This document shows, piece after piece, positions 1 to 27,216 of a stretch of DNA of 64,000 nt; the first letter of the stretch is position 1, and each line of letters opens with the position of its first letter. Origin of the DNA: Escherichia coli 042 (GTDB taxonomy: Bacteria > Pseudomonadota > Gammaproteobacteria > Enterobacterales > Enterobacteriaceae); the NCBI RefSeq assembly GCF_000027125.1, contig NC_017626.1. One strand, 5' to 3'. Both the position numbers and the translations under genes were made by a program. Below the pieces are notes generated by a model. The model did not search any database. It was not told the DNA's origin and saw only the letters and a list, made by a program, of their open reading frames with translations.

Positions 1-635
1 TTGCCGCTGAACAGATGTAGCATTCTTTCCAGGTCGACGAGTCGGTCAGTCTGTTGCCCGGTGATAAGATGAAACCCCCACCGGTCCCACCTCACTAGGT
101 TGTTGACGATAATTTTACTGCCAAATTTGCAGGGGCAATTGGTTTTGTAATTCCAGTTCAGTCCCCTGAAGACGTTGATCACCCCTCGCTCAAACACCTC
201 ATCCTTATTCTGGTGTAGTTGTTCAAATGTGCTCAGAATGTTCGCTTCACTGATTTCCGGAAAATTATCGTGCTCCAGTGACCGGTACCATGTATCACGG
301 GCCTGTGCATCCATTAAGGAAAGCATCCCTGAACGTTGCATCAGGTCACGCCAGATTTCGCGATCGAGATTGCGTGTGATGGCTTTCATTGCGGTTTCCG
401 GTTTCTCCATCAGCCAGCAGCCGCAGCGAAAATCCTGTTTCATGGCCCAGTCCGGGGCGGCTTTACCGCCAATACTTTCTGTCATTGCTGATATTTCAGC
501 CAGTTGCCGGATAAGTGTGTCGATTTGCAGCAGTGTACTCTTTCGTACAGCCAGAATGTGGCGGATACTGGTTGAGCAGATAACGTCCGTATGCCCGGTG
601 ACCACTTCCGGACGGGAGATTGTGATGTCTGACAT
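1..635 (-). CDS. Partial CDS (start codon at 633-635, 3' end runs off window start); DUF4942-like putative methyltransferase-like protein
   Basis: Manual reverse-complement translation from ATG at 633-635 gives MSDITISRPEVVTGHTDVICS... with no stop for >200 codons down to position 1; absent from ORF track because the stop lies outside the window. Family name from recalled gene order downstream of yeeW. Confidence 0.45.
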   Translation of the reverse strand, partial: MSDITISRPEVVTGHTDVICSTSIRHILAVRKSTLLQIDTLIRQLAEISAMTESIGGKAAPDWAMKQDFRCGCWLMEKPETAMKAITRNLDREIWRDLMQRSGMLSLMDAQARDTWYRSLEHDNFPEISEANILSTFEQLHQNKDEVFERGVINVFRGLNWNYKTNCPCKFGSKIIVNNLVRWDRWGFHLITGQQTDRLVDLERMLHLFSG

Positions 636-719
636 TATCGGTTTCCCTTTTGGTTTATAAACGAAAACGCCAGCCCTGTTCAGGCTGACGTCAGTGGAAT
701 GAAGTATGGTGAGTGATAT

Positions 720-1142
720 TTACCGGTTCTGGTGCAGAAGCTGCAGATGACGAAGAGTACGGACATCCTCCCGGGCCTGTTCGATACAGGGCAACAGTGC
801 TACCGAATCCGTTTTATCCTCATCGTTGTCAAAGATAATTCCCGATTCGCAGTCGATATTGTCCTGCAGCCACGCAATGAGGATATCCAGCGCTGTTTCA
901 GTGGTTAATGGCATCACGCTCTGTATCACTGTATTGTCTTCCGGCAACTGATGAGGGCTGGCAGAAGTCGCCGGTGTTTCGGTAGCGTCACGTTCATTCA
1001 CCACGCGGAGTGAATAACCGTTTTCAGCGACTTTGTTAATCAGTTCAGCGAGCTCAATACCATCGACGTCAACGACAATGCGCCCCATGTTCAGCGCCTG
1101 CGCATTAATGCTGTCGGCTTCCAGCGTCAGGGCCAGTTTCAT
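720..1142 (-). CDS. yeeW: YeeW-like protein, downstream partner of CbtA toxin
   Basis: 140 aa ORF; ATGA overlap with cbtA stop; position matches yeeU-yeeV-yeeW order of E. coli cryptic prophages. Confidence 0.55.
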   Translation of the reverse strand: MKLALTLEADSINAQALNMGRIVVDVDGIELAELINKVAENGYSLRVVNERDATETPATSASPHQLPEDNTVIQSVMPLTTETALDILIAWLQDNIDCESGIIFDNDEDKTDSVALLPCIEQAREDVRTLRHLQLLHQNR

Positions 1143-1516
1143 TGTTTCGCCCCCGGATGTTTACCCAGGGTAATGTTATTTACCGTTCTGTAGTTGTCGC
1201 GTGTCATCAGGCCGGTTGCCCGGCGTGCCCGGAGAATATCAATGCTGTTGATTAACTGCGACGGGGCTCCTGCGCTGAATCCCGGCTGGTCGGTACGTAC
1301 CAGCGCGTATTTTTCAACGAGAAAGTTCACCGCGTCACACAGTGAAATCCCTGCCTCAATATGCTGCTCAATCACACGTTCATCAGCGAACGGTGTGTCA
1401 TTCAGCGTGAGGCCATAGTGCTGGTCCAGCAGTCGGGTGAGCAGTGTCTGCCAGATGGTGATGGGAGACGGGCAGCCCGATGCCTCCCGTACGTGAGTGT
1501 CGGGTAATGTATTCAT
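1139..1516 (-). CDS. cbtA: CbtA/YeeV-family type IV toxin (cytoskeleton-binding toxin)
   Basis: From internal Met (MNTLPDTHV...); tail ...LLDQHYGLTLNDTPFADERVIEQHIEAGISLCDAVNFLVEKYALVRTDQPGF... matches recalled CbtA/YeeV. Confidence 0.85.
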   Translation of the reverse strand: MNTLPDTHVREASGCPSPITIWQTLLTRLLDQHYGLTLNDTPFADERVIEQHIEAGISLCDAVNFLVEKYALVRTDQPGFSAGAPSQLINSIDILRARRATGLMTRDNYRTVNNITLGKHPGAKQ

Positions 1517-1562
1517 CTTAAGTTCTCTGTAACAGGTGGTTATAAAGGGGAGATATCCGGTG

Positions 1563-1940
1563 TTATACGGTGGTTGCGGGCGCTGCCGGTGTCGGATAAA
1601 CAGCCAGATAAACGTAACCACAGGAGCCGAGGGTGTCGGCTTCGCAGGTCAGCCCTTTCGCATACAGTGTCACGGTATGCTGATGGCGGGGATTCAGTTC
1701 ACCACTGGTGAGCATGAGCTCCAGTTGTTTCATCAGCAGCGGAAAGGCCTGGTCCAGGTGGTATGCATCTGCATCGCTGAACCGGCCTCTGATACCGGCG
1801 CGGTCGGCAAGGTAATGCAACCGGTTACCCTTCTGCACCAGACGTGCCCCGAAACAGGGCGTCACGGTGCAGGGCAGTCCCCACCAGAGGCGGTCGTGAT
1901 TGTCGTCGGGAGGCGTTGTCCCGGGGAGTGTGTCTGACAC
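1563..1940 (-). CDS. cbeA: CbeA/YeeU-family antitoxin
   Basis: MSDTLPGTTPPDDNHDRLWWGLPCTVTPCFGARLVQKGNRLHYLADRAGIRG... matches recalled YeeU/CbeA; immediately upstream of toxin; start codon appears to be GTG. Confidence 0.85.
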   Translation of the reverse strand: MSDTLPGTTPPDDNHDRLWWGLPCTVTPCFGARLVQKGNRLHYLADRAGIRGRFSDADAYHLDQAFPLLMKQLELMLTSGELNPRHQHTVTLYAKGLTCEADTLGSCGYVYLAVYPTPAAPATTV

Positions 1941-2019
1941 GATAAAGTCCTCACAGAAAATCGGTTAAGAATGGTCCGGTAGTGGCGATAATTCTGCTCA
2001 TCAGAATTCCCTTCCAGAC

Positions 2020-2241
2020 TCAGTTCAGGGTGACGCTCATCAGCCGGACATACGGACCAAAACTGTCCTTACGGCGTTCTGCAAACACAGCCAGTACACC
2101 GGGAATATCCTGCACTTCACGGCCGGTATATGTATCCGTGCTACCGTGCCAGCGGTATTTACCGGTACAGAACGGAAAAAGACGGGATGCAGGATGCTGA
2201 CGGTGAATACGCATGGCTTCACCACGGGTGATGATTTTCAT
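2020..2241 (-). CDS. yeeT: YeeT-like DUF987 protein
   Basis: 73 aa, MKIITRGEAMRIHRQHPASRLFPFCTGKYRWHG... matches recalled YeeT. Confidence 0.75.
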   Translation of the reverse strand: MKIITRGEAMRIHRQHPASRLFPFCTGKYRWHGSTDTYTGREVQDIPGVLAVFAERRKDSFGPYVRLMSVTLN

Positions 2242-2327
2242 GAGAATAGTCCTCCTGAATGTGAAAGTAAGAAACAGCTGAGAAAGAGAAACTGAAGTGA
2301 TATGAAGGTGATTGTGACGGTGACGGG

Positions 2328-2804
2328 TTAAAGCAGACCGTGTTCCGCAAAGGAGAAAACCTGGCTGCCACCGACTATCAGATGGTCCGGTACCCGGATA
2401 TCAACCAGGGCCAGTGCCTGTACCAGACGCTCAGTGATAAGGCGGTCTGCCTTGCTGGGGGGGACTTCACCGGACGGGTGATTGTGCGCCAGCACCACGG
2501 CAGCGGCATTGTGGTACAGGGCGCGTTTAATCACTTCCCGGGGATGGACTTCCGTACGGTTGATGGTGCCGGTGAAGAGGGTTTCACCGGCAATCAGCTG
2601 ATTCTGGTTGTTCAGATACAGCACCCGGAACTCTTCACGCTCCAGTCCCGCCATGTTCAGAATCAGCCATTCCCGTGCCGCATGCGTGGAGGTGAAGGCC
2701 ACGCCGGGTTCATGAAGATGGCGGTCCAGGGTTTTCAGGGCCCGCTGAATGAGGCTGCGCTCGCCGGGTGTCATCTCTCCGGGCAGAAAGGAAAGTTGTT
2801 GCAT
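2328..2804 (-). CDS. yeeS: RadC-like JAB-domain protein (YeeS/YfjY family); alternative start at 2819
   Basis: HNHPSG motif (JAMM-like), LIVGG; conserved position between antirestriction gene and yeeT. Confidence 0.8.
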   Translation of the reverse strand: MQQLSFLPGEMTPGERSLIQRALKTLDRHLHEPGVAFTSTHAAREWLILNMAGLEREEFRVLYLNNQNQLIAGETLFTGTINRTEVHPREVIKRALYHNAAAVVLAHNHPSGEVPPSKADRLITERLVQALALVDIRVPDHLIVGGSQVFSFAEHGLL

Positions 2805-2819
2805 TGTGCTTCTCTCCAT

Positions 2820-3293
2820 TCAATCGATGATGCGCATAATGGCGCTGCATTCCGGATGCTGCAGGGCGTAATCCCGCAGCCGGTAATAATGGACCGTCAT
2901 GGCATAACACTCCGTACGACAGGCATGATGACTGTACGTCATCAGACAGGCGGCAATGCCGGCGGCTTCCGGGCTCATTTCAGCGCGGTTACCGTTCATG
3001 GCATTGAACAGTACCCAGTTTTCGCCATCATCGTCATCCGGTTCGGGTGCCATAAATGCCCCGCCGTTGTTCAGGGTGTACAGATTCCAGATACCACCGC
3101 AGTAGTTTTCGCAAAGACGGTCCATCCAGCCGAAGACACGGGGCTCCAGGGTCACCCACTGTGGAATGAGGCCAAAGTGCTGCGGCCAGAAACTGATACG
3201 TTGTTCATCAGGGACGAGGCTGGCAACCAGTTGTTGCAGGTCAGTCTCCGGTGCTGAGACCGAAGAGGTGGTGTTCTGAGACAATGTTTTCAT
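2820..3293 (-). CDS. Antirestriction protein (ArdB/KlcA family, YfjX-like)
   Basis: 157 aa acidic protein (PEPDDDDGENW), recalled similarity to YfjX/KlcA; stop abuts radC-like start. Confidence 0.7.
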   Translation of the reverse strand: MKTLSQNTTSSVSAPETDLQQLVASLVPDEQRISFWPQHFGLIPQWVTLEPRVFGWMDRLCENYCGGIWNLYTLNNGGAFMAPEPDDDDGENWVLFNAMNGNRAEMSPEAAGIAACLMTYSHHACRTECYAMTVHYYRLRDYALQHPECSAIMRIID

Positions 3294-3594
3294 ATGTGAA
3301 ATCCTTGTAGTGTGAATAAATGCGAGGAAGTAAAGGTCGGGTGGCTGATAACATCACGTTCATCACTGACCGTGAGACCCGGTAATATCAGGGATGAATG
3401 ATATTCGGCTGAAATTCCGGACAGCCGTACGCGTAACCGTTCCGGTCACAGACGGATGGCCTGATGCCATTGCCTGTACTCAGTCTGCACAGACTGATTT
3501 CTCCGGGACGGTAAAGCAGACGGGTATACCAGGCGCACAGGTCATCATCAGAAATGGAACGACATCCCGGCAGCGCCTTCAGGGACAGGCTGCA

Positions 3595-4413
3595 TCAGCG
3601 CAGGCTCTCCAGCAGCGTTTCCGCCATCACCCACAATGCGCGGTTGAGCTTAATATCGGTGTCGATGCTGTGAATGGCACGGGTGTGGATACGTTTTCCT
3701 CTGGCACTGCGACCGGAAATCCCGCCTTTCAGCATATTCTCCTGGATGGTCTGATAAGTACTCCACAGGTCCTTACCGTAATCCTCCCTGCGTCGCGGTG
3801 TCAGAATGTCAGCGGTGGTGACGGGCTGATGTTCGTCACCATAACGGTAAGTCAGTGCCGCCTGTGCCAGCGCCTGGCGTGCCGGTGGCGGCAGAATCAG
3901 CGACTGCATGGCATCACGCTTTTCCTCAATCCGGTCAAAAACCCCCACCACCTCGTAAGCCCCTTCAATGACTCTGTCCACCACATTTCCCCGGTGCGGA
4001 ACACGCACTTCCCCCAGAGACTGACCACAGACGCATCCGTTCTGGCAGACGAACCTGAAGTAACCCGGCAGCATCTGGTAGCTGGAGGTACCGTCATGAG
4101 AGTTGAGCAGAATAATTTCAGGGAAATGTTCTCCGTTTATCTCTCCGGCCCGCCGCAGACGCAGCATGTGTTTTGTGTATCCCCGGCGGCCCGGGTCGCG
4201 CACACGGGTCTGGCAGGCGAAGAATGGCTGAAAGCCTTCCCGCTGCAGGCTTTCCAGTACGGTGATGGTGGGGATGTACGTATAGTTCTGGCTTCGGGAC
4301 GTGTGTTTATCTTCCCCGAAAATCCCCGGCACATAGTGCATCAGTTCTTCGTGTGTCAGCGGACGGTCACGGCGTATCTGGTTCGCATAACCAAAACGAC
4401 TGGCTAGTCGCAT
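3595..4413 (-). CDS. DUF932-family protein (YfjQ/YafZ-like)
   Basis: 272 aa; recalled similarity to YfjQ-type proteins of CP4-57-like elements. Confidence 0.65.
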   Translation of the reverse strand: MRLASRFGYANQIRRDRPLTHEELMHYVPGIFGEDKHTSRSQNYTYIPTITVLESLQREGFQPFFACQTRVRDPGRRGYTKHMLRLRRAGEINGEHFPEIILLNSHDGTSSYQMLPGYFRFVCQNGCVCGQSLGEVRVPHRGNVVDRVIEGAYEVVGVFDRIEEKRDAMQSLILPPPARQALAQAALTYRYGDEHQPVTTADILTPRRREDYGKDLWSTYQTIQENMLKGGISGRSARGKRIHTRAIHSIDTDIKLNRALWVMAETLLESLR

Positions 4414-4512
4414 AATTTGCTCCTTATCGGTGGTTAAGATTTACTGGTGTAATAAATGAAAAAGCCACGTCTCCCGGAGAAGACGCGGCCTGATGGGTGA
4501 AATGAATGACGT

Positions 4513-4746
4513 TTATTGTCTGAGAAGACCGTCACTGGCGAGCCGCGTATTAAGCACCTTTCCGGCATCGGGTTCAGAATTCCGGCAGCGCCAGCGTCGC
4601 TGACCTTCCGCGTTGCGGATAACCCGACGGAAATGCATTCCCGGGTCATCCTGGATAAACACATTGCGGTAAGCTGTTATGACAGCAACCGCCTGCCCGT
4701 ATGAGAAAGATCCTTCAGCCAGGACATACTCTGTGTAACCCGGCAT
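4513..4746 (-). CDS. DUF905-family small protein (YkfF-like)
   Basis: 77 aa; ...[29 protein letters not shown]... resembles recalled YkfF motif HFRLVVRD...WRAWNFEPDAG. Confidence 0.55.
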
Positions 4747-4824: not shown

Positions 4825-5280
4825 TCAGTTAACGTTTTTTCCGGAAACGGTAATTAGCAGTGGATGGTAGTCCTGGGGATCGAAAACCGATAACGGCAGA
4901 CTGACACGATGGCCGTTACTTTCTTCAGTTGCTTTAATGATTTCGGTTGTGGCGACATTTTCCACGCACTCCGTTTCCAGAAATGCGTCTGTGGTTCGCG
5001 TGGCATTACTGTCACCAAAAGCTTCCGTTTCCATTTTTCTGGTCACCAGCGTCTGACCATATTTGTCTTTGAGTTGCAGAGTGATGGTGAGGGGGCCAAA
5101 CCCTTCATCGTTTCCGCCATTATCCAGCCGGAACTGGTAAGCACAAATATTTCCCGGGAGCCATATCGTATCTGTATTGCGTATACTGATGTAACGTTGA
5201 TCCTGTGCCCGGAGTGGGGCAGACCACGTTAACCCCAGAATGAAGGCGGTAATCATGCAGGTTTTGAACAGGTGAATCAT
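4825..5280 (-). CDS. Predicted secreted protein with N-terminal signal peptide (YkfB/IrmA-like family suspected)
   Basis: Hydrophobic N-terminus MITAFILGLTWSAPLRAQ then hydrophilic body; family assignment from memory only. Confidence 0.4.
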   Translation of the reverse strand: MIHLFKTCMITAFILGLTWSAPLRAQDQRYISIRNTDTIWLPGNICAYQFRLDNGGNDEGFGPLTITLQLKDKYGQTLVTRKMETEAFGDSNATRTTDAFLETECVENVATTEIIKATEESNGHRVSLPLSVFDPQDYHPLLITVSGKNVN

Positions 5281-5355: not shown

Positions 5356-7878
5356 TTATGCCGGTAACTCCGGGGGTAATGCTTCTTCCAGCCGGTTAAC
5401 CATATTGCCGAGATGGGATGCATCATATTCCATGACGGGGCGTTGCCTGATGATACTGACCACCAGTGGTTTGATTAACATATTGGTCGCGGCCCGTTGT
5501 TGTATACCGGCGGCGAAAATGATCTCCAGAGCATTCTGATCGATAACACGGGCCAGATTCGCGTTCAGATTTTCTGTTTCATGTCCGGTCAGCAGGAAAC
5601 TGCCGGCAAGCCATGTCACCTGTTCCTGAATCATTGCCAGAATTTTGACGCGATCTTCTTCAACCAGCGCTCCGGCAATTTTTCCTGATACAGCGGAGGC
5701 AATCATTCCCCCCAGAACACCGCCAACCACACGCCCTGTCAGTGCACCAAATGGTCCCAGTGGACTGAACAGTATCCCGCCCGCCACTGACCCGACAGCT
5801 CCACCTGCCACACCGGAAGATGCCACGGCAAGATTCCTGATGAACTGCGTACCGGAGATCCGTCCCCGCAACATTTTGATCATGTCAGGGCCGGTTGTGA
5901 CAGCTACCAGTGCCAGAGATGTCACCAGCGTACCCTTCATCACTTTGTTCAGGGCACTGATATTTCCTGTACCGGTCCCCTTCTGAAGAGCCAGTCGGAC
6001 AGTCGGACTGGCCGTCGAAAAATCAATGTGCTTCAGCATACCCTGAACAACACTGAGCCGGTGAAGTTGCTGGGTTGTGACGTAGACAGCCAGTGTGCGG
6101 GTGAAGGTTTTTCCTGCCTGGACAGCAGCTGTCTGCAGGGCAGCATCGCGATCGCCGGTGCTGAGCCAGAAGACCGATGCCGTCAGGGCAAAACTGATCC
6201 CTCCGGCCGCCAGACTGACAACCGAACCCTCGGCAATATCATAAGTGACCGATTCGATGGTCCCGAACCGGGTGATATTACGGGCCTGGGTATAAGTCAG
6301 ATGTCCCCGACGAATCAGCCGGGACGCTTCTGCGGGATCGGTTACACCAGGTACTTTACCTTCGCGGATCTTATTCCTCATGGTTTCAACAGCGCCGGCA
6401 TACTGATCACGGGGGACTTCCAGTTGCATGGGGCCATGATTTCCCATGTAACGATACTGTCCGTTTTGTCCGTCGAATGCCGCACCGACGCTACGGGCTG
6501 CAGTTGAACAATATTTCGTCTGGATCTCTGTTCCGCTGACCAGTCTGTCTGCTCCATTTCTGGCATTATTATCACCGAGGATCCGTGCGTTTTTCAGACG
6601 GACTCTGTCGACAATATGGTTTCCCCGTTCAGCGGCAAACCCATGTCCCTGCCCTCCGGAAGCAAACATTTTCTCATTTGTACTCCAGGTTTCCGGCAGT
6701 TTCATGAGAATCAGACCATTCGCCGTTGCATCGGAAATAAAACTGTTGTAGGGGCGTTCATAAATTTCCTGACACAGTGTTTCTGTTTCGCGACAAAGAG
6801 AGGAGCAGTACCATTCCGGATCCGGCTTATGATTTTCCGGGGCATGATGTACTTCTGTCAGCCCGCAGGAGGCACAGATACGAAGCTCATCCACGTGATG
6901 GAATGATACAAAACGGCGACCTTCTGAAAAGGGATACCAGTCACCGCCGTCCAGGCAACGATCGAGAAAATCGTCATTCGCTTCCGGTGATAAATTCAGG
7001 CGGTTCCGGAAGAGGGTTTTCAGTTCATCAGGGGTAAATGACAGGCTCTCTCTCAGCTTTTCGTTGAAACCCGCCATGTTTCTTTCATACCAGGCATTGT
7101 CCAGTAGCCAGTTTCCGTCTGCCAGTTCAAATTCCCTCAGTTCTCCCCGGGAAATCCGTTGTGAAATGAGTGTCAGCCAGATGCGCTCCGTCAGCGTTTC
7201 AGGAAGGCTGTAATCGTTTTGCAAACTGCTCAGCCATGATTTACTGTTGAGCACCGGTTGTTCTTCCAGTGTCTGGCTGATGGCACTGGTCAGTCTTTTC
7301 AGCGCCTGGATCTGGCTGGCCGCCCATAGCAGCGTCACTAATGCAGCCAGCCAGTACAACAACCCGCCCCACCACATCAGTGAGGGTGAAATATCGAACT
7401 GCAATGCGATCAATGGTGCGTATGCAGAACACGCCATAAGGAAAAAGGCAGTATAAAAACAGCAGTAATACCCGTTAATTTCCTTGCTGATATCTTCAGG
7501 TGTGAGCCCGTTCTGCTGAATGGTTCTTATCTGCACGGGAAGAGCCAGCAGACCAGCGGCGAGAGCGGTGGTCAGAATAAATTTTACAGAGTCAAAAGTA
7601 TGAGCCTCCAGTGCGATATGTTTACCATCAAGTCCCCACATGAAGCTGATGATCATTCCGGCAATCGTCAGAAATACGCCTGCCAGCCAGCGAATATGGA
7701 ATAACCGGGTTATGCGTTCAGTGATATAGCCAGCCAGTAAAGCCGGACCGAACAGACACAGCAATATGAACCCTGCCAGCGCAGACGCTGTGCTGGTTAA
7801 TGCTCTGAACAAAAGGCGAAGAATGGCAAATCCTGCGATCAGCAGAATCAGCGCGCCGACTATCTGTAACATAGTCAC
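5356..7878 (-). CDS. Large inner-membrane protein, YeeR/YfjW-like
   Basis: 840 aa; multiple hydrophobic helices at N-terminus and Gly-rich hydrophobic C-terminal region; sits where yeeR lies relative to flu in CP4-44. Confidence 0.55.
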   Translation of the reverse strand: MTMLQIVGALILLIAGFAILRLLFRALTSTASALAGFILLCLFGPALLAGYITERITRLFHIRWLAGVFLTIAGMIISFMWGLDGKHIALEAHTFDSVKFILTTALAAGLLALPVQIRTIQQNGLTPEDISKEINGYYCCFYTAFFLMACSAYAPLIALQFDISPSLMWWGGLLYWLAALVTLLWAASQIQALKRLTSAISQTLEEQPVLNSKSWLSSLQNDYSLPETLTERIWLTLISQRISRGELREFELADGNWLLDNAWYERNMAGFNEKLRESLSFTPDELKTLFRNRLNLSPEANDDFLDRCLDGGDWYPFSEGRRFVSFHHVDELRICASCGLTEVHHAPENHKPDPEWYCSSLCRETETLCQEIYERPYNSFISDATANGLILMKLPETWSTNEKMFASGGQGHGFAAERGNHIVDRVRLKNARILGDNNARNGADRLVSGTEIQTKYCSTAARSVGAAFDGQNGQYRYMGNHGPMQLEVPRDQYAGAVETMRNKIREGKVPGVTDPAEASRLIRRGHLTYTQARNITRFGTIESVTYDIAEGSVVSLAAGGISFALTASVFWLSTGDRDAALQTAAVQAGKTFTRTLAVYVTTQQLHRLSVVQGMLKHIDFSTASPTVRLALQKGTGTGNISALNKVMKGTLVTSLALVAVTTGPDMIKMLRGRISGTQFIRNLAVASSGVAGGAVGSVAGGILFSPLGPFGALTGRVVGGVLGGMIASAVSGKIAGALVEEDRVKILAMIQEQVTWLAGSFLLTGHETENLNANLARVIDQNALEIIFAAGIQQRAATNMLIKPLVVSIIRQRPVMEYDASHLGNMVNRLEEALPPELPA

Positions 7879-7992: not shown

Positions 7993-10900
7993 TCAGAAGG
8001 TCACATTCAGCGTGGCCTGACTGTTATAACCTTCAGCGCTGCTGCCGCTGACGCTGTGGGCATAACCGGCCTGAACGCCCAGGGTGATATTTTCCCGGAC
8101 ACGGGCTTCCAGTCCGGCCTGCAGATCCAGTGAAGTGCCATTCTGTGAGGGAGAGAACGTCATCCCGCTGCCTGCGGTGGAGGTCCCCACACGCATATCA
8201 CCCCGGGAGCTGAAGGTGCGGATAACGGAAGGCTGTACCCACCAGTTCACCGGCAGTTCACGCACACTGTGTTTTGCACTGTCACGCAGGGGGGCACGGG
8301 ATGAGGTGCCTTCACCAAAGGTCATATCGTTGTGGCTGCCCAGACGGAAACCGGCACGCACATGTTGTGCACTGCCATGCCCGAACTTCACATAACCGGC
8401 GTTGTCCTTACCGTCATCCAGCGAAAGCCCCTGCCAGGTGTACTGCAGCCGTGGCTCCAGCATCAGGTTGTCAGTAATACTGAAGGGCAGACCGGTTTCC
8501 AGTGAGCCCAGCCAGCCCCAGCCCCGTGCGCGGAAGTCGTTATTGCCCGATGACGCTTTCATACTGTGGCGGGTTCCCTGTGCCACAATGTCAGCCCACA
8601 GGCCGGAGGAGGTGTGTGTCAGGTTCATATATCCGCCCAGGCTGCCGGCATCATCCCGGACCGTGCCGGCGCGGGAGCCGTCATCATCCTTAACATCAAC
8701 GGAAGAATGGCCTGCAGCACCATACACTCCTGTCGTCAGTGACATACCGGCGACCTCTGTTCTGAGCAGGTCACCCTCCAGACGGACGAAGCCATAGCTG
8801 CCGCTGCTTTCCGGCGTGGCCCCACGGGCAATACCGCCGTTGTTATCGTGACCGAGATGGCCGCCCTGAATGCTGAGACGGACGCTGTTATTTTCACCGT
8901 TTACACCGGTCTGATGGCTGCGTGAGCCTGCCAGAATCCGGTCATAGTCCATTGCCTGTGTCAGCATGGAGGCGTACAGGGGGACTTCAGCACGATAACG
9001 TTCTTCACTGCGCAGATACCAGCTCTCATCACTGTCCCGGTTGAGGGTGTAGTTAAAGGCCCCGGCCTGCAGCATATTCCCCTGGACAAAAGCCCCTTCC
9101 TCCGTGGTGGCACCGTTAATGGCCTCAACCACCTGAATACCCTTACCGGTGGTCGCCAGCCCCGTACCACTGTTGCCGGCGTTCACCAGATTCAGGATGG
9201 TTTTTCCGGTTGCCCTGCCACCGTCAATGACCAGTCTGTCAGCATTGTTCTGCGCCATATCCGGGCGTACACGCAGGCTGATGGTGCCATTCTGCCCGTT
9301 CAGGTTTTTCACCTGCAGGGTTGCCGGTACGAACTTCCCTGTGCGGGTGGAGGTGAAATGAATCTGTCCGGCATGGCTGAGGTCATCCACCACCGACTGC
9401 ACCGTGGCGTTATCAGGGATATTCCAGGTGGCACCGGATGTCAGGGTGACATTCGTGGGGTCAATGGCACCGTTCAGCACTGTGCTGCCGGTCAGCTTCA
9501 GGGCCGTGCCGCGCTGAGCGATGACATCCGTGGTGACGGTACTGTCGTTCAGCGTCAGCGTGCCTTCATTCAGGTTGACGGTTTTCTGGGTGAGTGTGGT
9601 GTTGCTGACAGTGAGTGTGCCACTTCCTGATTTTTCCACCCTGCCGTTACCGGTAAGAGCGCCTCCCTGCAGGAGTGCATCACCTTCACGGATGGTCAGG
9701 GTATCGTTATTCACCGTTTTCCCGGAAAGGGTAAGCGTGGCACCGTTATTCAGCGTGGTGGTGCCCGCCAGCGAGCCCCCTCTGGCAGTGAACAGTCCGC
9801 CATTTACCGTGGTATCCGTGGCCGTATCACCGGCGTTCAGCGTGAATGAACTGCCTTTTTCCAGCATCAGGGCATCCGCCTGACCGCCCCCGATACGGAA
9901 TGCCGTTCCGTCGCTCCGGGTACCACTGACAGCGGCCCCGGAATCGGCCAGCAGTACACCGCCATTCCCCATGGATACGGTGGTGGCGGCACCACCGTTG
10001 CGGACATCCAGCGTTCCGCCATCATCCACACGGGTATTAGTGGCTGTGTGTCCGCTCAGCACATCCAGACGTCCGCCATTTTCCAGTACGACATTATCAG
10101 CCTTACCCGCCAGAACGGAGAATGCTCCCAGGCGGTTTGTGCCGGTGACGGTTGCAGCTGTGCTGGTAACCAGTGCACCTCCCGTGTTCTGGGTGACATC
10201 AGACGCTTTACCGCCGGCATTCACCTGCAGCTTTCCTTTCTGGTTGATGGTGGTATGCGCGGTAGTTCCTCCTTCCTTAATCACCTGCCAGCCCCCCTCG
10301 TTAATTACCGTGTTCAGCGCAAGTCCGTATTTGTGCACATACTGGTTTCCTCCCTCCAGCCGGGTGTTATGTGCCTCGCCGTGTACCGTCTGGTCACCGC
10401 CGGCGTAAATGAGGGTGTCCCGTGCCATCCCCGAAGACCAGATAACCTGCCGGCCATTTTTGTTGATGGTGGTGGATTCAGCCGTCCCTCCGACCATCTG
10501 ACCGCTGGACACATTTTCAGACTCCGGACCACCTTCTGCACCGGTGTTGACGATGGTTCCGGTTGCCTGCCCGCCATGTTTAATGGTCTGGTAGCCAGAC
10601 TGGTTAATCACCGTTCCGGATGCACTGCCGCCTGCATGTATCCATTGTTCACCACCGTTAAGGACAGTACCGTAAGCCTGCCCGCGCAGATTCTGTCCTC
10701 CACCGGCACTGATAACCGTATCCGTGGCACTGCCACCTGCCATGACATCCTGCAGACCGTTTGCGGTGACCGTGGTGTTTCTGGCAGTGCCACCCCGGGC
10801 TATCTGCTGACCGCCGGTGTTGTCATCAGAGTCCGGCCCCAGCTCAAGCCCGGTACTGACAGTCACGCCATCAGCTGTTCCGGATACAAACTGGTTGTCA

Positions 10901-11112
10901 TGGTTTACCAGTGTTCCGCCATTCACTGTTTCACCCGGGTGCACAACGATGTCAGCAGCCAGCACCGGGAGTGACGTGACTGCGGCAAGAGACAGTGCAA
11001 CCGCCACACCGCCACGTTTACCCCGTGCGCGGGCCAGTTCGGAGGCAACCACGAAAGCGCCCGTAATGTGATTCCATACCAGCCTGTAGCAGGTATTCAG
11101 ATGTCGTTTCAT
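7993..11112 (-). CDS. flu: Antigen 43 self-associating autotransporter adhesin
   Basis: N-terminus MKRHLNTCYRLVWNHITGAFVVASELARARGKRGG (extended signal peptide), repetitive beta-helix passenger, C-terminal beta-barrel ending ...TLNVTF; start taken at second Met (1039 aa). Confidence 0.9.
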   Translation of the reverse strand: MKRHLNTCYRLVWNHITGAFVVASELARARGKRGGVAVALSLAAVTSLPVLAADIVVHPGETVNGGTLVNHDNQFVSGTADGVTVSTGLELGPDSDDNTGGQQIARGGTARNTTVTANGLQDVMAGGSATDTVISAGGGQNLRGQAYGTVLNGGEQWIHAGGSASGTVINQSGYQTIKHGGQATGTIVNTGAEGGPESENVSSGQMVGGTAESTTINKNGRQVIWSSGMARDTLIYAGGDQTVHGEAHNTRLEGGNQYVHKYGLALNTVINEGGWQVIKEGGTTAHTTINQKGKLQVNAGGKASDVTQNTGGALVTSTAATVTGTNRLGAFSVLAGKADNVVLENGGRLDVLSGHTATNTRVDDGGTLDVRNGGAATTVSMGNGGVLLADSGAAVSGTRSDGTAFRIGGGQADALMLEKGSSFTLNAGDTATDTTVNGGLFTARGGSLAGTTTLNNGATLTLSGKTVNNDTLTIREGDALLQGGALTGNGRVEKSGSGTLTVSNTTLTQKTVNLNEGTLTLNDSTVTTDVIAQRGTALKLTGSTVLNGAIDPTNVTLTSGATWNIPDNATVQSVVDDLSHAGQIHFTSTRTGKFVPATLQVKNLNGQNGTISLRVRPDMAQNNADRLVIDGGRATGKTILNLVNAGNSGTGLATTGKGIQVVEAINGATTEEGAFVQGNMLQAGAFNYTLNRDSDESWYLRSEERYRAEVPLYASMLTQAMDYDRILAGSRSHQTGVNGENNSVRLSIQGGHLGHDNNGGIARGATPESSGSYGFVRLEGDLLRTEVAGMSLTTGVYGAAGHSSVDVKDDDGSRAGTVRDDAGSLGGYMNLTHTSSGLWADIVAQGTRHSMKASSGNNDFRARGWGWLGSLETGLPFSITDNLMLEPRLQYTWQGLSLDDGKDNAGYVKFGHGSAQHVRAGFRLGSHNDMTFGEGTSSRAPLRDSAKHSVRELPVNWWVQPSVIRTFSSRGDMRVGTSTAGSGMTFSPSQNGTSLDLQAGLEARVRENITLGVQAGYAHSVSGSSAEGYNSQATLNVTF

Positions 11113-11294
11113 CAGCATTTCCTTAATCAGAGTGAGGGTGAATAAAAAAGCCGGTATCCACAGATGTGGATACCGGCAGGTAAAGGGTTACAGTGCCGGA
11201 GGTCCGGCTGACGGAAGTTTCTGACGTGTGGCTCTGTTGTTCCCTGAATCTCATGTCTGTGTGTATCTGCGCACGTTGCTAACAGGAGTTATTA

Positions 11295-11345
11295 TTAGCA
11301 TGACGATCGATATAAACGATCGATAAAATAGGTATCGATCGTTTT
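11295..11345 (-). promoter_or_regulatory. agn43 phase-variation switch: three closely spaced GATC sites (Dam/OxyR region)
   Basis: Sequence acGATCgatataaacGATCgataaaataggtatcGATCg ~190-230 bp upstream of the flu start codon; protein binding not testable from sequence. Confidence 0.65.
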
Positions 11346-11445
11346 ATTCTATTATCAGGCTATTGCACGGACAAGAGAGACAGTAACGAAAACAGCGCTT
11401 TTGTGAGCAGACTCAGAGGCAGGGAGGACATCATCCACAACAGGT

Positions 11446-12318
11446 TCAGAAGAAGATCCAGTTCCATACCGCGCGGGCAACAGAGACCACGGTGTCACGA
11501 ACAGCGCGCAGGGCCGTACGGACAACAGAGGCAACACAGACGCTCTCCGCTGTGTCAAATATCCGGTCCACCGCACCGGTAAACTGTTCACGGGCCTGAG
11601 AGCGGACAGACTCCGTGCGCAGCTCGTCCTGCAGTCGGGTCATCAGGGGGCTGGCGGCATGGTCGGGAAGCGCTGTCATGAGCGCACTGACCAGCGTATC
11701 CAGTTCCCAGCCGGTGCGGGCCGATACGGCAACAACCGGATGTACGGGCCGGAACAGACGGAATACCGCCTCCGTTTTCTCACGAATGTTCTGTTCCTGT
11801 GCGGGAGAAGGCTGAATACCTGCCATATCCCATTCATGGCAGGGTTCCGTTTTGTCAGCCTGCGTCACCACAAACAGCACCTGCTGATGTCCGCACTGCA
11901 GGATGTGTCGCCAGAAATACTCATCCACAGACAGGGCCCGGTCATCGGCTTTAATCAGCCACAGCACCAGGTCCAGTTCAGGCAGAATGTCACGGTACAG
12001 GGCTTCATACTCTGCATCCCTGTCCCGGCTCTCGCCCACCCCGGGCAGGTCAGTGATAACCATGCTGTGACCGTGACCACTCAGACGGAAGCGCTGCACT
12101 TCCCGGGTGCCGGCGTGAACATCACTGACCGGTGTGACCTCCCCCTGAAACAGTGCATTACAGAGTGAAGATTTACCGGCCCCGCTTTTACCCATAATGC
12201 CAATCACGGGTTCGTGACTGGTGAGTTTGCGCAGATGTTCCAGGATGTGACGGGAAAGTGAGTAAGGCAGGGAGGAGAGCGGTTTTTCAATTGCCTCAAT
12301 GGCATCAGACGGATTCAT
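11446..12318 (-). CDS. yeeP: YeeP/YkfA-family GTPase (50S ribosome-binding GTPase domain)
   Basis: P-loop GIMGKSGAGKSSL, DLPG switch; adjacent to flu as in CP4-44; start taken at internal Met MNPSDAIE. Confidence 0.8.
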   Translation of the reverse strand: MNPSDAIEAIEKPLSSLPYSLSRHILEHLRKLTSHEPVIGIMGKSGAGKSSLCNALFQGEVTPVSDVHAGTREVQRFRLSGHGHSMVITDLPGVGESRDRDAEYEALYRDILPELDLVLWLIKADDRALSVDEYFWRHILQCGHQQVLFVVTQADKTEPCHEWDMAGIQPSPAQEQNIREKTEAVFRLFRPVHPVVAVSARTGWELDTLVSALMTALPDHAASPLMTRLQDELRTESVRSQAREQFTGAVDRIFDTAESVCVASVVRTALRAVRDTVVSVARAVWNWIFF

Positions 12319-15806: not shown

Positions 15807-16504
15807 GAAAATGTTCCTCCGGATGTTGTTAATCTCAACCGGCGTTGGTGATGAAAAACGCACCACCTTCACTGGCATAACAACCGGGGAGAAACGTAAA
15901 AAATGAGCAGGGGAATATTCCTGTCGGGAGATAAACAGGGAGCATGATGCTGGGATACCCGGTGGCTACCGCGAAACGATGTTTCTCGCGCGTACGCACG
16001 ACAGAGAAGGGATGATTTTCGGGAGGATGAGGGGAAGAACCGTCGTTCTTATAATTGCAGAGTTATTTACGGGGCGGTTACGGTGGGGCAGCTCGTGCCT
16101 TGTGGGCAGGGACAGGTATCACCGATGGGATAAGACTGTCTGATTGGTATTATAAATATATAAGAGAGATCAAACACATGAGTTCATATCTGTGAAATAA
16201 ACACTGTGAGTGTGATCAGTGGGTATGAGAACGCAGTAGCAACAGATTACGTTGTACTCACAGGGCTATCCCTGATAGCTGGCGTATAACCTGCGTATAT
16301 AAAACGTACCTGCAACACACGTGAACAGAGTGCATTAAGCATCCGTCTGAGCGGTAAACGTATCCGACCTGGTGAGTGACAGTCTGAGAGACCGGTTAAG
16401 TGGTGGTGCGGGAGTAATGAGTTTGGGGTGGGTACCAGAATGCCAGTCAGGTGCGGTATGCTGGCAGTATCACGTTAATTGCAGCATAAAGTGATGAGAG
16501 GCTA

Positions 16505-20368: not shown

Positions 20369-20764
20369 AGATTTCAGAACGGTAACAGTTAACTAAATTT
20401 TCATGTGGTAGCACTGAATCAGGAGTCTCTGCCTCCTGATGTGTTTTGTTAATCTTCTGTTTTTACTAGAAATCCCCTCACTCCTTCTTTCATTGCATTT
20501 TGTTGGGCCCTTCCTCCATATCTTTCCCGCTTTCCAGAAATCACGTCAATGCTGCTGAAACTTTACTCATTGTGATTTTCAATGACTGAAATCAAGAAAA
20601 TACAGTGTTTATGTTAACTGGCTGTATCAAAAGTGTTTTGTGGAATAATTTTCTGTATTTTTACATTAACAATGGTTATAAGCTTTGAATATTCATTATT
20701 TTGCGACATTCCATAGAATAAAGTCCTGATTATTTGCATTATATCGATCGATGTATCTGTTATA

Positions 20765-20800
20765 TTGAGATTTTTCAGATCTTCGTCCTATAATGATCAA
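20765..20800 (+). promoter_or_regulatory. Putative sigma70 promoter of the T6SS operon with GATC sites and Fur-box-like sequence over the -10
   Basis: ttgaga (-35-like), ~18 bp spacer, tataat (-10) followed by aatGATCaaaattaa; further GATC at ~20746 and ~20778; ~75 nt upstream of tssB; coordinates approximate. Confidence 0.5.
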
Positions 20801-22953: not shown

Positions 22954-24291
22954 ATGAAGATTTATCGCCCATTATGGGAAGACGGGGCTTTTCTGATGCC
23001 CCAGCAGTTTCAGCAGCAGGCTGCCTGGGATGTTCATCTGGCAGACAGCGTTGCCAGAATGGGGCTGGCGCATCCATGGGGCGTGGTGGCTGCAGAGTTT
23101 GATGACTCTCTGTTACCGCTTTCACGGTTGAATGCCACCCGTCTGATTGTTCGTTTCCCGGACGGAACGCTTATTGATACGGAACGCGCGGATAATCTGC
23201 CTCCGGTCTGTGATTTATCGACGGTTTCTGATCGTTCCCTGGTGGATATTGTGCTGGCACTACCGTTACTGAATGCTAACGGTGGCAACCTTGATAATGG
23301 CAGTGAGAGCGAGCGTCCGCGTCGCTGGAAATCAGAAAGGGTGAATGTGCAGGAGCTGGCCGGGCATGAGCAAAGCGAAGTGGCGGTATTGCGGCATAAC
23401 CTGACTCTGCGCATGGCTCATCAGGAAAATGCTGCCTGGCTGACCTGTCCCGTTACCCGTCTTGTTCGTGATGCACAGGGACAGTGGTGCAGGGACCCGC
23501 GTTTTATTCCCCCTCTGCTGACGCTGTCTGCCAGTCCTTCGCTGATGACTGAACTTGCGGAGTTGCTTCATCACCTGCAGGCGCGTCGCCAGCGACTGAT
23601 GTCCATGCGTCGGGAGAACAATGCCCGTCTTGCGGATTTTGCTGTGGCGGACGTGTCGTTGTTCTGGTTGCTGAATGCCCTGAACAGTGCGGAGCCTGTT
23701 CTGAAAGAGTTGCTTGACATGCCTTACCGCCACCCGGAACTGTTGTACAGGGAGCTTGCCCGGCTGGCAGGCTCCCTGCTCACATTCTCGCTTGAGCATA
23801 ATGTGGATGCGGTTCCGGCATACCATCATGAAACACCTGAAAATGTTTTCCCACCATTGCTTTCTTTGCTGAACCGGCTGCTGGAGGCAAGCCTGCCTTC
23901 CCGTGTGGTTTTCATTGAACTGAAACAAAAGGGTGTGATGTGGGAGGGGGCATTACATGATGCGCGTCTGCGCGAAGGGGCTGATTTCTGGCTTTCAGTG
24001 CGCTCTTCCATGCCCGGGCATGAACTGCAGACGAAGTTTCCGCAGCTATGCAAAGCCGGGAGCCCCGATGATGTGTCTGAGGTGGTGAATGTGGCGCTGA
24101 GCGGGGTCATTATCCGTCCGGTTACGCATGTACCGGCGGCCATTCCGCTCCGGCTGGAAAACCAGTATTTCGCGCTGGATTTAAGTACGGATGCGGCCCG
24201 GGCGATGCTGGACGCGGGGCGTTGTACTTTCTACACCCCGGCATCGCTGGGAGATGTGAAACTGGAACTTTTTGCGGTGCTGCGGACATGA
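22954..24291 (+). CDS. tssK: T6SS baseplate subunit TssK
   Basis: MKIYRPLWEDGAFLMPQQFQQQ N-terminus typical of TssK; 445 aa. Confidence 0.88.
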   Translation: MKIYRPLWEDGAFLMPQQFQQQAAWDVHLADSVARMGLAHPWGVVAAEFDDSLLPLSRLNATRLIVRFPDGTLIDTERADNLPPVCDLSTVSDRSLVDIVLALPLLNANGGNLDNGSESERPRRWKSERVNVQELAGHEQSEVAVLRHNLTLRMAHQENAAWLTCPVTRLVRDAQGQWCRDPRFIPPLLTLSASPSLMTELAELLHHLQARRQRLMSMRRENNARLADFAVADVSLFWLLNALNSAEPVLKELLDMPYRHPELLYRELARLAGSLLTFSLEHNVDAVPAYHHETPENVFPPLLSLLNRLLEASLPSRVVFIELKQKGVMWEGALHDARLREGADFWLSVRSSMPGHELQTKFPQLCKAGSPDDVSEVVNVALSGVIIRPVTHVPAAIPLRLENQYFALDLSTDAARAMLDAGRCTFYTPASLGDVKLELFAVLRT

Positions 24292-24941
24292 ATAAACCTG
24301 TTATCTCCCGGGCTGAACAGATTTTTTATCCCGGCTGGCTGATGGTCAGCCAGCTGCGCAGCGGGCAACCGGTTGAGGATGGTAAGGCCCTGTATCGCCG
24401 TGCCTGTCAGCTGGTGAAACAGGCGCGTGAAGAGCTGGCCGAAGCAGGATTCAGTCAGAAAAGCAGTGACATCATGTTGTATGCCTTCTGCGCCCTGCTG
24501 GACGAGAGTGTACTGAACCGCGAAAAAACAGACGATGGCTGGCGCACCTGGCAGCAGGACCCGCTGCAGGCTCATTTTTTTGGTACGCTCAATGCCGGTG
24601 AAGAGCTCTGGGAGCGTATTCGTGAACAACTGAAATTACCAGCGCCGGATGTGGCGGTACTGACATGCCTCTGCCGTACGCTTCAGCTCGGTTTTACCGG
24701 TCAGTACCGGTCGCAGGATGATGAGCGTCGCGAAGATGTAATACGCGCACTGACAGCGCGTGTTCCTGCATTTACTTTCGCACAGGATGCGCCGGTGGTG
24801 GTGCGTGCACCGGGTTACCGTGCTGGCAGAACGATGTACTGGTTGTCATGGGGGGCGGGTATTGTGACGCTGGCTGGTCTCTGGTGTGTGCTTTCTTCTG
24901 TGCTTGCAGACCAGGTGGCACGGCTTACCGGGCAGGGATAA
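24288..24941 (+). CDS. tssL: T6SS membrane subunit TssL (DotU-like)
   Basis: ATGA overlap with tssK; cytoplasmic DotU-like domain plus one C-terminal TM helix (WLSWGAGIVTLAGLWCVL). Confidence 0.85.
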   Translation: MNKPVISRAEQIFYPGWLMVSQLRSGQPVEDGKALYRRACQLVKQAREELAEAGFSQKSSDIMLYAFCALLDESVLNREKTDDGWRTWQQDPLQAHFFGTLNAGEELWERIREQLKLPAPDVAVLTCLCRTLQLGFTGQYRSQDDERREDVIRALTARVPAFTFAQDAPVVVRAPGYRAGRTMYWLSWGAGIVTLAGLWCVLSSVLADQVARLTGQG

Positions 24942-24943
24942 CC

Positions 24944-26674
24944 ATGCACGTACGTTCCCGTCTCTGGCTGACAATACTGAGTCTGTTCCTGACACTGTGG
25001 CTGATTTCGGGATTCCTGCCGCTGTCTGCAGTAAACCAGATAATACTGACCCTGGTTTCAGTTGTGGCGGCGGGGCTTGTGCTGTGGTACCAGTGGCGTT
25101 GTCTGTCTTCCCGTCGTGATATCCCGGAGAAGGCCGGCGATGACGGTCTGCCGCCTGAGTATTTTCAGGGACATGTGCTGCTTGTTGCCGGAAACTCAGA
25201 TGCGTGGTTCGAACCCGGTCAGGCATACCGGGAAACAGCATCGGGATGGTATCTTCGTGTGGATACGCCGGAGCAGATGAGAATACTGGCAGAACGGTTG
25301 TCGTACAGCCGTCCGGCCCTGTGTGGCCAGGTCGTGGTCATGCTGGGACTTTTACCGGAGCAGCATACCTCAGATGAAGCTTTCCTGTCGTGGTTGCGGA
25401 ACTGGCAGCGTGCAGTCATGCAGTGCCGGCAGTGGCTGAATACCACGCCACCGGTGCTGGTTACATTGATGGTTTCAGAGCCGTCACCACAAAACACATC
25501 CTTAAATAAGCACTCTACACACTGGTTTACACTGACACCGGACCTGCCGGGAATGCATATACGCCTGACGGAAGCCGGAGCAATTCCGGCAGAGGAATGG
25601 CTGCAGGCGTGTGATGCAGCGTCCAGGCTCCGGTGCGTCAGTGAACTGTTATGGCTGAATGCCATGTTGTCCTGGTACAACCGGGTTACTGATGCCCTGA
25701 CAGCTATTTGCCGGCAGGAGCACTTTTATTTCCGGCCGGTTGCCGTTGGATTCTGTCTGACGTCGGTTGCGGCCCGCCCCGGTAATCTCTGGCAACAACA
25801 ACTGACGTCCCTCACTGCATTGCCACCGCCTGCCGGCGTGTCATCACAGGTATTGCCGTTGCCGGATATTCTGCTGTCCGGTATTCCCCGTCATCGTGGA
25901 CTCAGTCACTGGCACAGACTTTGTCGCCAGACGGGGGCGATTGTCGGTGTTTTTCTTCTGCTGGCTATGCTGGCGTCTTTTATGAATAACCAGCGGCTGG
26001 TTCGCAGCGTGGGGGAACACCTGACGGCCTGGCACCGGATGCGCGGATATTCATCTGAATCGAAAACAACAGCACTGCAACGTCTTCAGGCTGACAGCCA
26101 GTTACTGAACGACTGGCAGCAACGTGGTGTGCCACAGCGTTACGGACTGGGATTGTATCAGGGAATGTGGCTGATACCGCCGGTTGAGCGTGCGACTGGT
26201 GAGTGGGTTGCACCACGGCCTCCCCGTCCGGTGATACAGAAAGTTACTCAGACGCCGAAAACGGTTCGCCTTAACAGCCTGGCACTGTTTGATGCCGGTA
26301 AATGGACGCTGAAGCCGGGCGCCACAAAATGGCTGGTGAATGCCCTGGTGGATATTAAGGCAAAAGCAGGCTGGCTGATTGTGGTCAGTGGTCACACGGA
26401 TAATACCGGTGACCCGCTGCGCAACCAGGCCTTGTCCCTGAAGCGTGCAGAGGCCGTTCGCGACTGGATGCGGGATACCGGCGATATTCCCCAAAGCTGT
26501 TTTGCCGTACAGGGATACGGTGAAAGCCGCCCTGTGGCCCCGAATGACACGGCGGAAGGCCGTGCGCGTAACCGCCGTGTTGAAATCAGTCTGGTACCGC
26601 AGGCCGATGCCTGTCGTCTGCCGGACGTTTCCCCTGCGCCGGAAGAGGGCGCATCAGAAAACATAACGGAGTAA
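24944..26674 (+). CDS. tagL: TagL-like T6SS accessory membrane protein with C-terminal OmpA-type peptidoglycan-binding domain
   Basis: N-terminal TM helices; C-terminus VSGHTDNTGDPLRNQALSLKRAEAV...NRRVEI is the OmpA/MotB motif; position after tssL as in EAEC Sci-1. Confidence 0.78.
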   Translation: MHVRSRLWLTILSLFLTLWLISGFLPLSAVNQIILTLVSVVAAGLVLWYQWRCLSSRRDIPEKAGDDGLPPEYFQGHVLLVAGNSDAWFEPGQAYRETASGWYLRVDTPEQMRILAERLSYSRPALCGQVVVMLGLLPEQHTSDEAFLSWLRNWQRAVMQCRQWLNTTPPVLVTLMVSEPSPQNTSLNKHSTHWFTLTPDLPGMHIRLTEAGAIPAEEWLQACDAASRLRCVSELLWLNAMLSWYNRVTDALTAICRQEHFYFRPVAVGFCLTSVAARPGNLWQQQLTSLTALPPPAGVSSQVLPLPDILLSGIPRHRGLSHWHRLCRQTGAIVGVFLLLAMLASFMNNQRLVRSVGEHLTAWHRMRGYSSESKTTALQRLQADSQLLNDWQQRGVPQRYGLGLYQGMWLIPPVERATGEWVAPRPPRPVIQKVTQTPKTVRLNSLALFDAGKWTLKPGATKWLVNALVDIKAKAGWLIVVSGHTDNTGDPLRNQALSLKRAEAVRDWMRDTGDIPQSCFAVQGYGESRPVAPNDTAEGRARNRRVEISLVPQADACRLPDVSPAPEEGASENITE

Positions 26675-26679
26675 TTTTT

Positions 26680-27171
26680 ATGGCAATTCCAGTTTATCTG
26701 TGGCTGAAAGATGATGGCGGTGCAGATATCAAAGGGTCCGTGGATGTTCAGGACCGTGAGGGCAGCATTGAGGTGGTGGCTCAGGAGCACTGCCTCTACA
26801 TCCCGACGGATAACAATACCGGTAAGCTGACCGGTACCCGTATTCACACGCCGTTTCTGTTTACCAAGGAAATTGATTCTTCCAGCCCGTACCTTTACAA
26901 GGCCGTGACCACCGGGCAGACCCTGAAGTCTGCTGAGTTTAAGTGGTACAAAATCAATGATGCCGGTCAGGAGGTGGAGTATTTCAATACGAAGCTTGAG
27001 AACGTGAAGGTGGTGAAGGTTAACCCGGTCATGCACGACATCAAGAATCCCGCTTACGAGAAGCATAACCACCTTGAGCAGGTGGAACTGCGCTACGAGA
27101 AAATCACCTGGACTTACAAGGACGGCAACATCATTCATTCCGACGCATGGAGTGAGCGTACCACCGCGTAA
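26680..27171 (+). CDS. hcp: T6SS tube protein Hcp (TssD)
   Basis: MAIPVYLWLKDDGGADIKGSVDV... canonical Hcp N-terminus, 163 aa. Confidence 0.92.
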   Translation: MAIPVYLWLKDDGGADIKGSVDVQDREGSIEVVAQEHCLYIPTDNNTGKLTGTRIHTPFLFTKEIDSSSPYLYKAVTTGQTLKSAEFKWYKINDAGQEVEYFNTKLENVKVVKVNPVMHDIKNPAYEKHNHLEQVELRYEKITWTYKDGNIIHSDAWSERTTA

Positions 27172-27179
27172 TTCTGCCG

Positions 27180-27216
27180 GACGGACAGGGCATCCTGTCC
27201 GTCATTTTTATTTTTT
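27180..27216 (+). terminator. Rho-independent terminator downstream of hcp
   Basis: Perfect 10-bp stem gacggacagg/cctgtccgtc with 4-nt loop followed by atttttatttttt. Confidence 0.65.

Follow-up and report, generated by a model that had tools for sequence, protein, structure and literature searches.

A likely complete copy of the agn43 (flu) Dam/OxyR phase-variation switch upstream of agn43, a yeeR-like gene and irmA in Escherichia coli

Genes of the agn43 locus

The agn43 (flu) gene of the window, which is the whole 64-kb stretch of Escherichia coli DNA analyzed here, is preceded by a yeeP-like GTPase gene and followed by a yeeR-like gene and irmA (Table 1). The spacer between the GTPase gene and agn43 is 333 bp long and holds a triplet of GATC sites. 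The flu gene is encoded on the minus strand, which corrects the description given in the initial annotation of this DNA. Its product comprises the Pfam domains ESPR, AIDA (five copies), AC_1 and Autotransporter beta-domain, and aligns with K-12 Flu with no gaps at 88% identity. The homologous gene is annotated as agn43 in O104:H4 and in strain BR1220.

The product of the yeeR-like gene matches no Pfam domain. The 838-codon frame of this gene is intact in the window and in O104:H4, and is annotated as frameshifted in the otherwise collinear BR1220. In UPEC, agn43, yeeR and irmA form one operon, and both the co-transcription of irmA with agn43 and its repression by OxyR have been demonstrated (PMC4807369). 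Agn43, the yeeR-like gene and irmA probably constitute one operon in this strain as well, and since the yeeR-like gene and irmA are intact, a switch upstream of agn43 would probably govern all three genes.

On the other side of the spacer, the GTPase gene is homologous to K-12 yeeP, which is a pseudogene. Only 72 bp separate the stop codon of the GTPase gene from the -35 hexamer of agn43, and as no terminator was detected in this interval, read-through from the GTPase gene into the switch is conceivable.

Table 1. Positions of the genes and regulatory elements around agn43 in the window
Feature	Coordinates	Strand	Description
irmA (interleukin-receptor mimic protein A)	4825..5280	minus	intact, 151 aa; Pfam IrmA PF18673, E = 9.8e-38
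yeeR-like membrane protein gene	5356..7872	minus	intact, 838 aa; membrane protein by O104:H4 annotation
agn43/flu	7993..11112	minus	intact, 1039 aa, single open frame; ORF 7993..11118, ATG annotated at 11112
agn43 5' leader	11137..11342	minus	match to Rfam RF00124 IS102 (IsrC) RNA
Intrinsic-terminator-like hairpin	11140..11177	minus	12-bp stem, 8 G-C pairs, loop of 4, then TTTTTTATT
GATC-III	11308..11305		third in transcription order; Dam target site
GATC-II	11321..11318		second in transcription order; Dam target site
GATC-I	11340..11337		first in transcription order; Dam target site
OxyR-type operator (predicted)	11306..11342	minus	ACGATCGATACCTAT-TTTATCG-ATCGTTTATATCGAT; two 15-bp half-sites, 7 bp between
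Putative transcription start	11340	minus	G of GATC-I; from K-12 isrC annotation and UPEC RACE distance
Sigma-70 promoter of agn43	11346..11374	minus	-35 TTGTCC (11374..11369), 17-bp spacer, -10 TAGAAT (11351..11346); consensus scan
yeeP-like GTPase gene	11446..12318	minus	intact, 290 aa, Pfam MMR_HSR1; upstream edge of the 333-bp regulatory region

The GATC triplet

Three GATC sites within about 36 bp had been reported between 11295 and 11345, and they are indeed found inside that range, at 11305, 11318 and 11337. The triplet spans 36 bp, and no other three GATC sites of the window are as close together, the runner-up spanning 46 bp. On the minus strand, it precedes the ATG of agn43 (11112) by 190-228 bp. 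The description of the sites as being upstream of flu holds for the coding sequence, to which they are 5', but not for the promoter: the sites fall within the first ~36 nt of the leader and are downstream of the promoter.

When the 129 GATC sites of the window are placed uniformly at random in 64 kb, an equally tight triple arises somewhere in about 21% of the placements. Because of this frequency the clustering carries little weight by itself, and it was rejected as stand-alone evidence. The sparse local context makes the triplet more notable, since between 8124 and 13411 the only other GATC is that at 11455. The decisive support for a putative switch is homology rather than statistics.

Promoter, operator and transcription start

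Both hexamers of the predicted sigma-70 promoter are the same as in K-12 in the alignment. Among 13 aligned alleles the -35 hexamer is unchanged in all, and the -10 hexamer is altered once, in Nissle 1917. A promoter-like match on the plus strand (11300-11329, 9/12) is regarded as a chance occurrence.

The consensus for an OxyR tetramer, ATAGnTnnnAnCTAT-N7-ATAGnTnnnAnCTAT, is said to originate from Toledano et al. 1994. Its half-site form is quoted in PMC2909390. The segment 11342..11306 agrees with this consensus at 14/20 positions and is the best match of the region; the K-12 operator has the same register and the same score. The motif alone proves nothing, because an unrelated site of the window, at 16143-16179, likewise scores 14/20, and the consensus score was consequently rejected as stand-alone evidence. 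The window and K-12 operators are the same at 35/37 positions. The two differences, G for A at 11336 and C for T at 11332, are both at N positions of the consensus. Three more substitutions are found just 3' of GATC-III, where the window has GTCATGC vs. GATAAGC in K-12. The G at 11336 completes a perfect 12-bp inverted repeat, AAACGATCGATA / TATCGATCGTTT, with a 7-nt spacer (11314-11344), which joins GATC-I and GATC-II and which has one mismatch in K-12.

Two lines of evidence point to the same base as the transcription start. In K-12, isrC is annotated from the homologous G of GATC-I onward, and in UPEC strain EC958 the agn43 start was mapped by 5' RACE to a position 228 bp ahead of the start codon (PMC4807369). 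As 11112 + 228 = 11340, which is the same G, transcription in the window probably starts at 11340. With this start, the GATC sites would extend from about +1 to +36 and the operator from about -2 to +35. Such a position of the predicted operator, over the start, fits OxyR acting as a steric repressor.

Leader RNA and terminator

The leader matches RF00124 over the full model (1-206 of 206) with 255.5 bits vs. a gathering score of 46. The hairpin proper of the leader terminator is at 11177..11150 and is followed by the T-run. The terminator is kept in 13/13 alleles, with 5/38 columns variable. Expression of flu is described as being under the control of IsrC antitermination (PMC5389530). Since IsrC starts at the same promoter, it is the terminated agn43 leader and not an alternative to it.

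Homology to K-12 and conservation among alleles

The minus strand of 11080-11520 aligns with the yeeP-isrC-flu region of K-12 MG1655 over ~440 bp with a mean column identity of 93%. The start-to-start spacing of the GATC sites is 19 and 13 bp in both, the K-12 sites being at positions 1818, 1837 and 1850 of the K-12 locus (L001). The region thus aligns with the characterized agn43 OxyR site, and every element that could be checked is common to the two. The proposal that the known agn43 architecture is matched and intact is borne out by this comparison, in which the spacing, the hexamers, the operator and the downstream gene are all retained relative to K-12.

A 361-bp query (11100-11460) is present in 1917 of 5426 complete E. 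coli genomes. In the best 30 of those genomes, which include O104:H4 outbreak strains and O55:H7 DEC5E, the 361 bp are 100% identical, and the gene downstream is annotated as agn43 in nearly all of these 30. The region is likewise identical in the O104:H4 strain C227-11 (NZ_CP011331.1). Many genomes with the window allele carry 2-4 copies of the region each, and up to four copies of the regulatory region were seen per genome. Some genomes, among them that of strain SK1144 (NZ_AP018784.2, hits H1 and H83), have window-type and Nissle-type alleles at two loci. Two alleles, or several copies, in one genome make independent switching of agn43 paralogues possible.

Conservation was examined in an alignment of 13 alleles, consisting of the window, K-12 and 11 alleles spread over the identity ranking from 98.6% down to 85.6%. 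Among these 13 alleles, which are few and related by descent, none of the 12 GATC columns varies. In the operator, 1/20 consensus-specified columns varies vs. 6/17 N positions, and 38% of the columns of the intergenic region overall are variable. This pattern is as expected for a protein-binding site with constrained GATCs. The two operator bases in which the window departs from K-12 recur: G at 11336 is present in 8/13 alleles and C at 11332 in 4/13.

The Nissle-type allele is 97.5% identical to the window over the 361 bp, and it is 100% identical in ABU 83972 and ST131 strains. The Nissle 1917 copy (L004) has four differences from the window in the operator, three of them at unspecified consensus positions. 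The sole change at a consensus-specified OxyR position is at 11330, CCCAT for CCTAT. In this copy the -10 hexamer also begins with A in place of T (position 11351; AAGAAT vs. TAGAAT). The promoter or the operator of the Nissle-type allele may be weaker. The G at 11336 is absent from both allele types that have experimental support, namely K-12 and the Nissle-type of ST73 and ST131 strains. These experimentally supported types, with two operator differences from the window in K-12 and four in the Nissle 1917 copy, bracket the window allele.

The switch was also sought in other species. A strict 39-mer pattern of the switch gave no matches in a scan of species representatives, one genome per species. 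A loose 19-mer in the same kind of scan gave 12 matches in unrelated taxa, with dissimilar flanks, which by our own estimate is close to the chance expectation. In these exact-pattern scans, a weak test with one genome per species, the switch was not seen outside E. coli.

GATC depletion around the switch

GATC is depleted two-fold in the window, with 129 sites observed vs. 259 expected from a first-order Markov model. This calculation rejects double counting of the palindrome as the cause of the deficit. The window contains five GATC-free blocks (366-4708, 8128-11304, 23234-30133, 38375-44020 and 46388-54277), which are 3.2-7.9 kb long, sum to ~28 kb, have 10-27 sites expected in each, and alternate with stretches of roughly normal density. 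The block at 8128-11304 covers flu and most of the flu leader. The cluster at the switch stands alone in a GATC desert.

When synonymous codons were shuffled, flu, which has one GATC, was expected from its protein and codon usage to have 9.6 +/- 2.3, and 0/2000 shuffles reached one or fewer. A similar deficit is seen in tssH, tssA and tssM. The same shuffle gave no such deficit for the yeeR-like gene, tssC, tssF, vgrG and tle1. K-12 flu has no GATC at all, and over 4.6 kb of K-12 there are no GATCs other than the three of the switch. An artifact or an altered window as the source of the GATC-free blocks was considered and rejected: O104:H4 has the same 61 sites, 0/16 differences touch a GATC, and K-12 flu has none either, so that the pattern is natural. 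GATC-free regions of at least 1 kb have been reported before in E. coli islands and prophages (PMC4659465; PMC6602927; Forde 2015), and the depletion described here is therefore not new in kind.

That the depletion is functionally tied to the switch, rather than being generic to mobile DNA, is improbable; the idea is a speculation on a real compositional signal. If it were true, the depletion could keep processive Dam and SeqA off the operator, so that the race between Dam and OxyR stays stochastic. Poor, phase-dependent strand discrimination by MutH could also, in that case, raise the variability of the adhesin gene.

Other tetranucleotides depart from the expectation in the window as well. 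By the first-order Markov model CCGG is 2.8-fold over-represented (641 vs. 231). CTAG is nearly absent (6 vs. 138 expected) and TCGA is at 0.39 of its expectation.

The sci1 T6SS promoter and the island

A putatively Dam-sensitive T6SS promoter had been placed in the same window by the initial annotation. The sci1 T6SS promoter is located at 20746-20798 on the plus strand, with tssB at 20875 downstream, and contains GATC sites at 20746, 20778 and 20795 in a 53-bp span. The contexts of these sites are ATCGAT (BspDI), TCAGATC (Hpy188I) and TGATCA (BclI), respectively. The arrangement is exactly that published for the Fur/Dam switch of the EAEC sci1 T6SS (Brunet et al. 2011, PMC3145626), in agreement with the initial annotation. 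One base of the sci1 promoter is unlike that of O104:H4 (T for C at 20761).

Over its first 22.6 kb, the window matches O104:H4 2011C-3493 at 99.93% identity. The sci1 T6SS cluster, compared over 22621-48303, is complete in the window (tssB to tssE, with Tle1, two Tli1 genes, VgrG and PAAR). O104:H4 2011C-3493 (L002) has lost ~22 kb of the cluster and is left with a truncated tssC. The T6SS segment 21000-29000 is ~100% identical in BR1220, EAEC 55989 and others, and collinearity with BR1220 extends over the first 50 kb of the window. The DNA therefore stems from a relative that has kept the cluster, such as BR1220 or 55989, rather than from the outbreak clone.

A distance of 9.4 kb separates the sci1 promoter from the agn43 switch, and the two are transcribed divergently. 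One island thus carries both of these published Dam-dependent systems, the OxyR/Dam switch of agn43 and the Fur/Dam switch of sci1, which would make the strain a natural test bed for correlated epigenetic states of neighboring loci.

Proposed mechanism and alternative explanations

The region is very probably a complete copy of the Dam/OxyR epigenetic phase-variation switch of agn43 (flu). Homology to the K-12 switch supports the interpretation given by the initial annotation, and the window copy of agn43 is probably phase-variable, which is a reasonable reading of its sequence. The feature is already known and understood, and in this sense ordinary; its significance beyond annotation is little. 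Neither dam nor oxyR is inside the 64-kb window, which is chromosomal E. coli DNA. Both are core genes of E. coli, and on that ground they are assumed to be present in the host.

The OxyR-bound and the Dam-methylated states of the agn43 switch are mutually exclusive and heritable, with ~1e-2 to 1e-3 switches per generation (PMC3764049, PMC4872104, PMC2909390, PMC13337833). Deletion of oxyR de-repressed IrmA in ABU 83972, and agn43 and irmA in the ST131 strain EC958 (PMC4807369). A literature search for experiments or methylation data on the exact allele of the window, including O104:H4 and C227-11, found nothing usable. For OxyR binding, methylation sensitivity, the start, co-transcription and heritable switching, the mechanism outlined below is drawn from the K-12 and UPEC literature; its link to this locus is the elements, the homology and the conservation described above.

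Transcription from the sigma-70 promoter would begin at about 11340, and the first ~36 transcribed base pairs would form one OxyR operator containing the three GATC sites. In the OFF state, OxyR, whether reduced or oxidized, would occupy the unmethylated operator, block RNA polymerase and shield the GATC sites from Dam. In the ON state, the GATC sites would be methylated by Dam, which would prevent OxyR binding and allow transcription. Each state would be copied at replication, and switching would take place in the hemimethylated window after passage of the fork, when Dam and OxyR compete. Some transcripts would end at the terminator of the leader and yield the IsrC/IS102 RNA, and others would continue into agn43. 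Read-through probably extends into the yeeR-like gene and irmA, in which case the adhesin and the secreted IrmA would be turned ON and OFF together in subpopulations of cells. In this strain, clumping and biofilm formation due to Ag43, and probably the secretion of IrmA too, would then be expressed in a heritable subpopulation only, which matters for phenotyping and for the picking of colonies (PMC3764049).

The allele might be homologous to the K-12 switch and nevertheless locked or biased, if the G at 11336, the C at 11332 and the GTCATGC sequence shifted the affinity of OxyR so that agn43 is, in essence, permanently ON or permanently OFF. There is a precedent in opvAB of Salmonella, which is locked by single-nucleotide changes in half-sites (PMC4856963), and with the base at 11336 the inverted repeat around GATC-I and GATC-II becomes perfect, which it is not in K-12. 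However, both operator changes are at unspecified positions, the consensus score equals that of K-12, and the variants recur in other alleles, which makes them look like neutral or tolerated variation; a locked allele is unlikely. It is very unlikely that the switch is intact yet silent, owing to the leader terminator, to H-NS-type silencing of the island or to a second agn43 copy that dominates the phenotype. The terminator is strong, Hha is also encoded on the island, and many genomes with the window allele have several copies of the region, all of which would be compatible with silence. The terminator is, however, present in all alleles including that of K-12, where Ag43 is abundant (PMC3764049), and the coding sequence is intact and conserved.

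A further explanation dispenses with the switch altogether: the GATC sites could be a chance by-product of ATCGATCG-type palindromes in an AT-rich spacer, or the region could be only the gene of the IsrC small RNA. The frequency of equally tight triples among random placements is in favor of chance, and the Rfam class of the stretch is indeed that of an sRNA gene. Nevertheless, the region has as its ortholog a switch that has been dissected by experiment, none of the 12 GATC bases varies whereas 38% of the intergenic columns do, and the IsrC RNA, which comes from the same promoter, is the terminated leader of agn43. This explanation has hardly any probability, and a complete Dam/OxyR switch remains the preferred reading of the region.

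Comparison with known switches

The switches of the pap type resemble that of agn43 in the Dam-dependent, heritable ON/OFF control of a surface adhesin. They require Lrp, a PapI-like protein and a pair of GATC boxes, which are about 102 bp from each other and within Lrp sites. The pap-type architecture is absent from the agn43 regulatory region, where the GATC spacings are 13 and 19 bp and where the GATC that follows, at 11455, falls in the GTPase coding sequence, 115 bp away from GATC-I.

The gtr and opvAB switches of Salmonella are alike in the use of OxyR and Dam, in the location of GATC sites inside OxyR half-sites, and in the mutual exclusion of methylation and binding. They are distinguished by four GATC sites, by three or four half-sites that are located upstream of the promoter and are alternatively occupied by OxyR, and by OxyR acting also as an activator. 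In contrast, the agn43 region of the window has a single predicted operator, placed over the start, which would be a repressor site only, and it has no sequence homology to the Salmonella systems.

The EAEC sci1 switch differs from that of agn43 in its repressor, which is Fur, in its dependence on GATC-I alone, and in responding to iron instead of being purely stochastic (PMC3145626). The two are alike in that methylation competes with the repressor, and the sci1 switch is found in the same window with three GATC sites in 53 bp.

The Dam/OxyR switch of K-12 agn43 (flu) was reportedly described by Henderson & Owen 1999, Haagmans & van der Woude 2000, Wallecha 2002 and Waldron 2002. It shares with the window orthologous DNA, the GATC spacing, the hexamers, the register and score of the operator, an IsrC-type leader with its terminator, and the type of the gene downstream. 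The differences are in the leader, which is 228 nt in the window vs. 222 nt in K-12 and hence 6 nt longer, in the passenger domain of Flu, which is 88% identical, and in the neighboring genes: yeeP is a pseudogene, yeeR is disrupted and irmA is absent in K-12, whereas all three are intact in the window.

The agn43-yeeR-irmA operon of UPEC (Moriel et al. 2016, PMC4807369) differs from the locus described here in that co-transcription and repression by OxyR were demonstrated in another strain background, that of UPEC. The two loci are alike in the gene order, in the intactness of all the genes, and in the leader, the 228 nt of the window being equal to the distance found by RACE.
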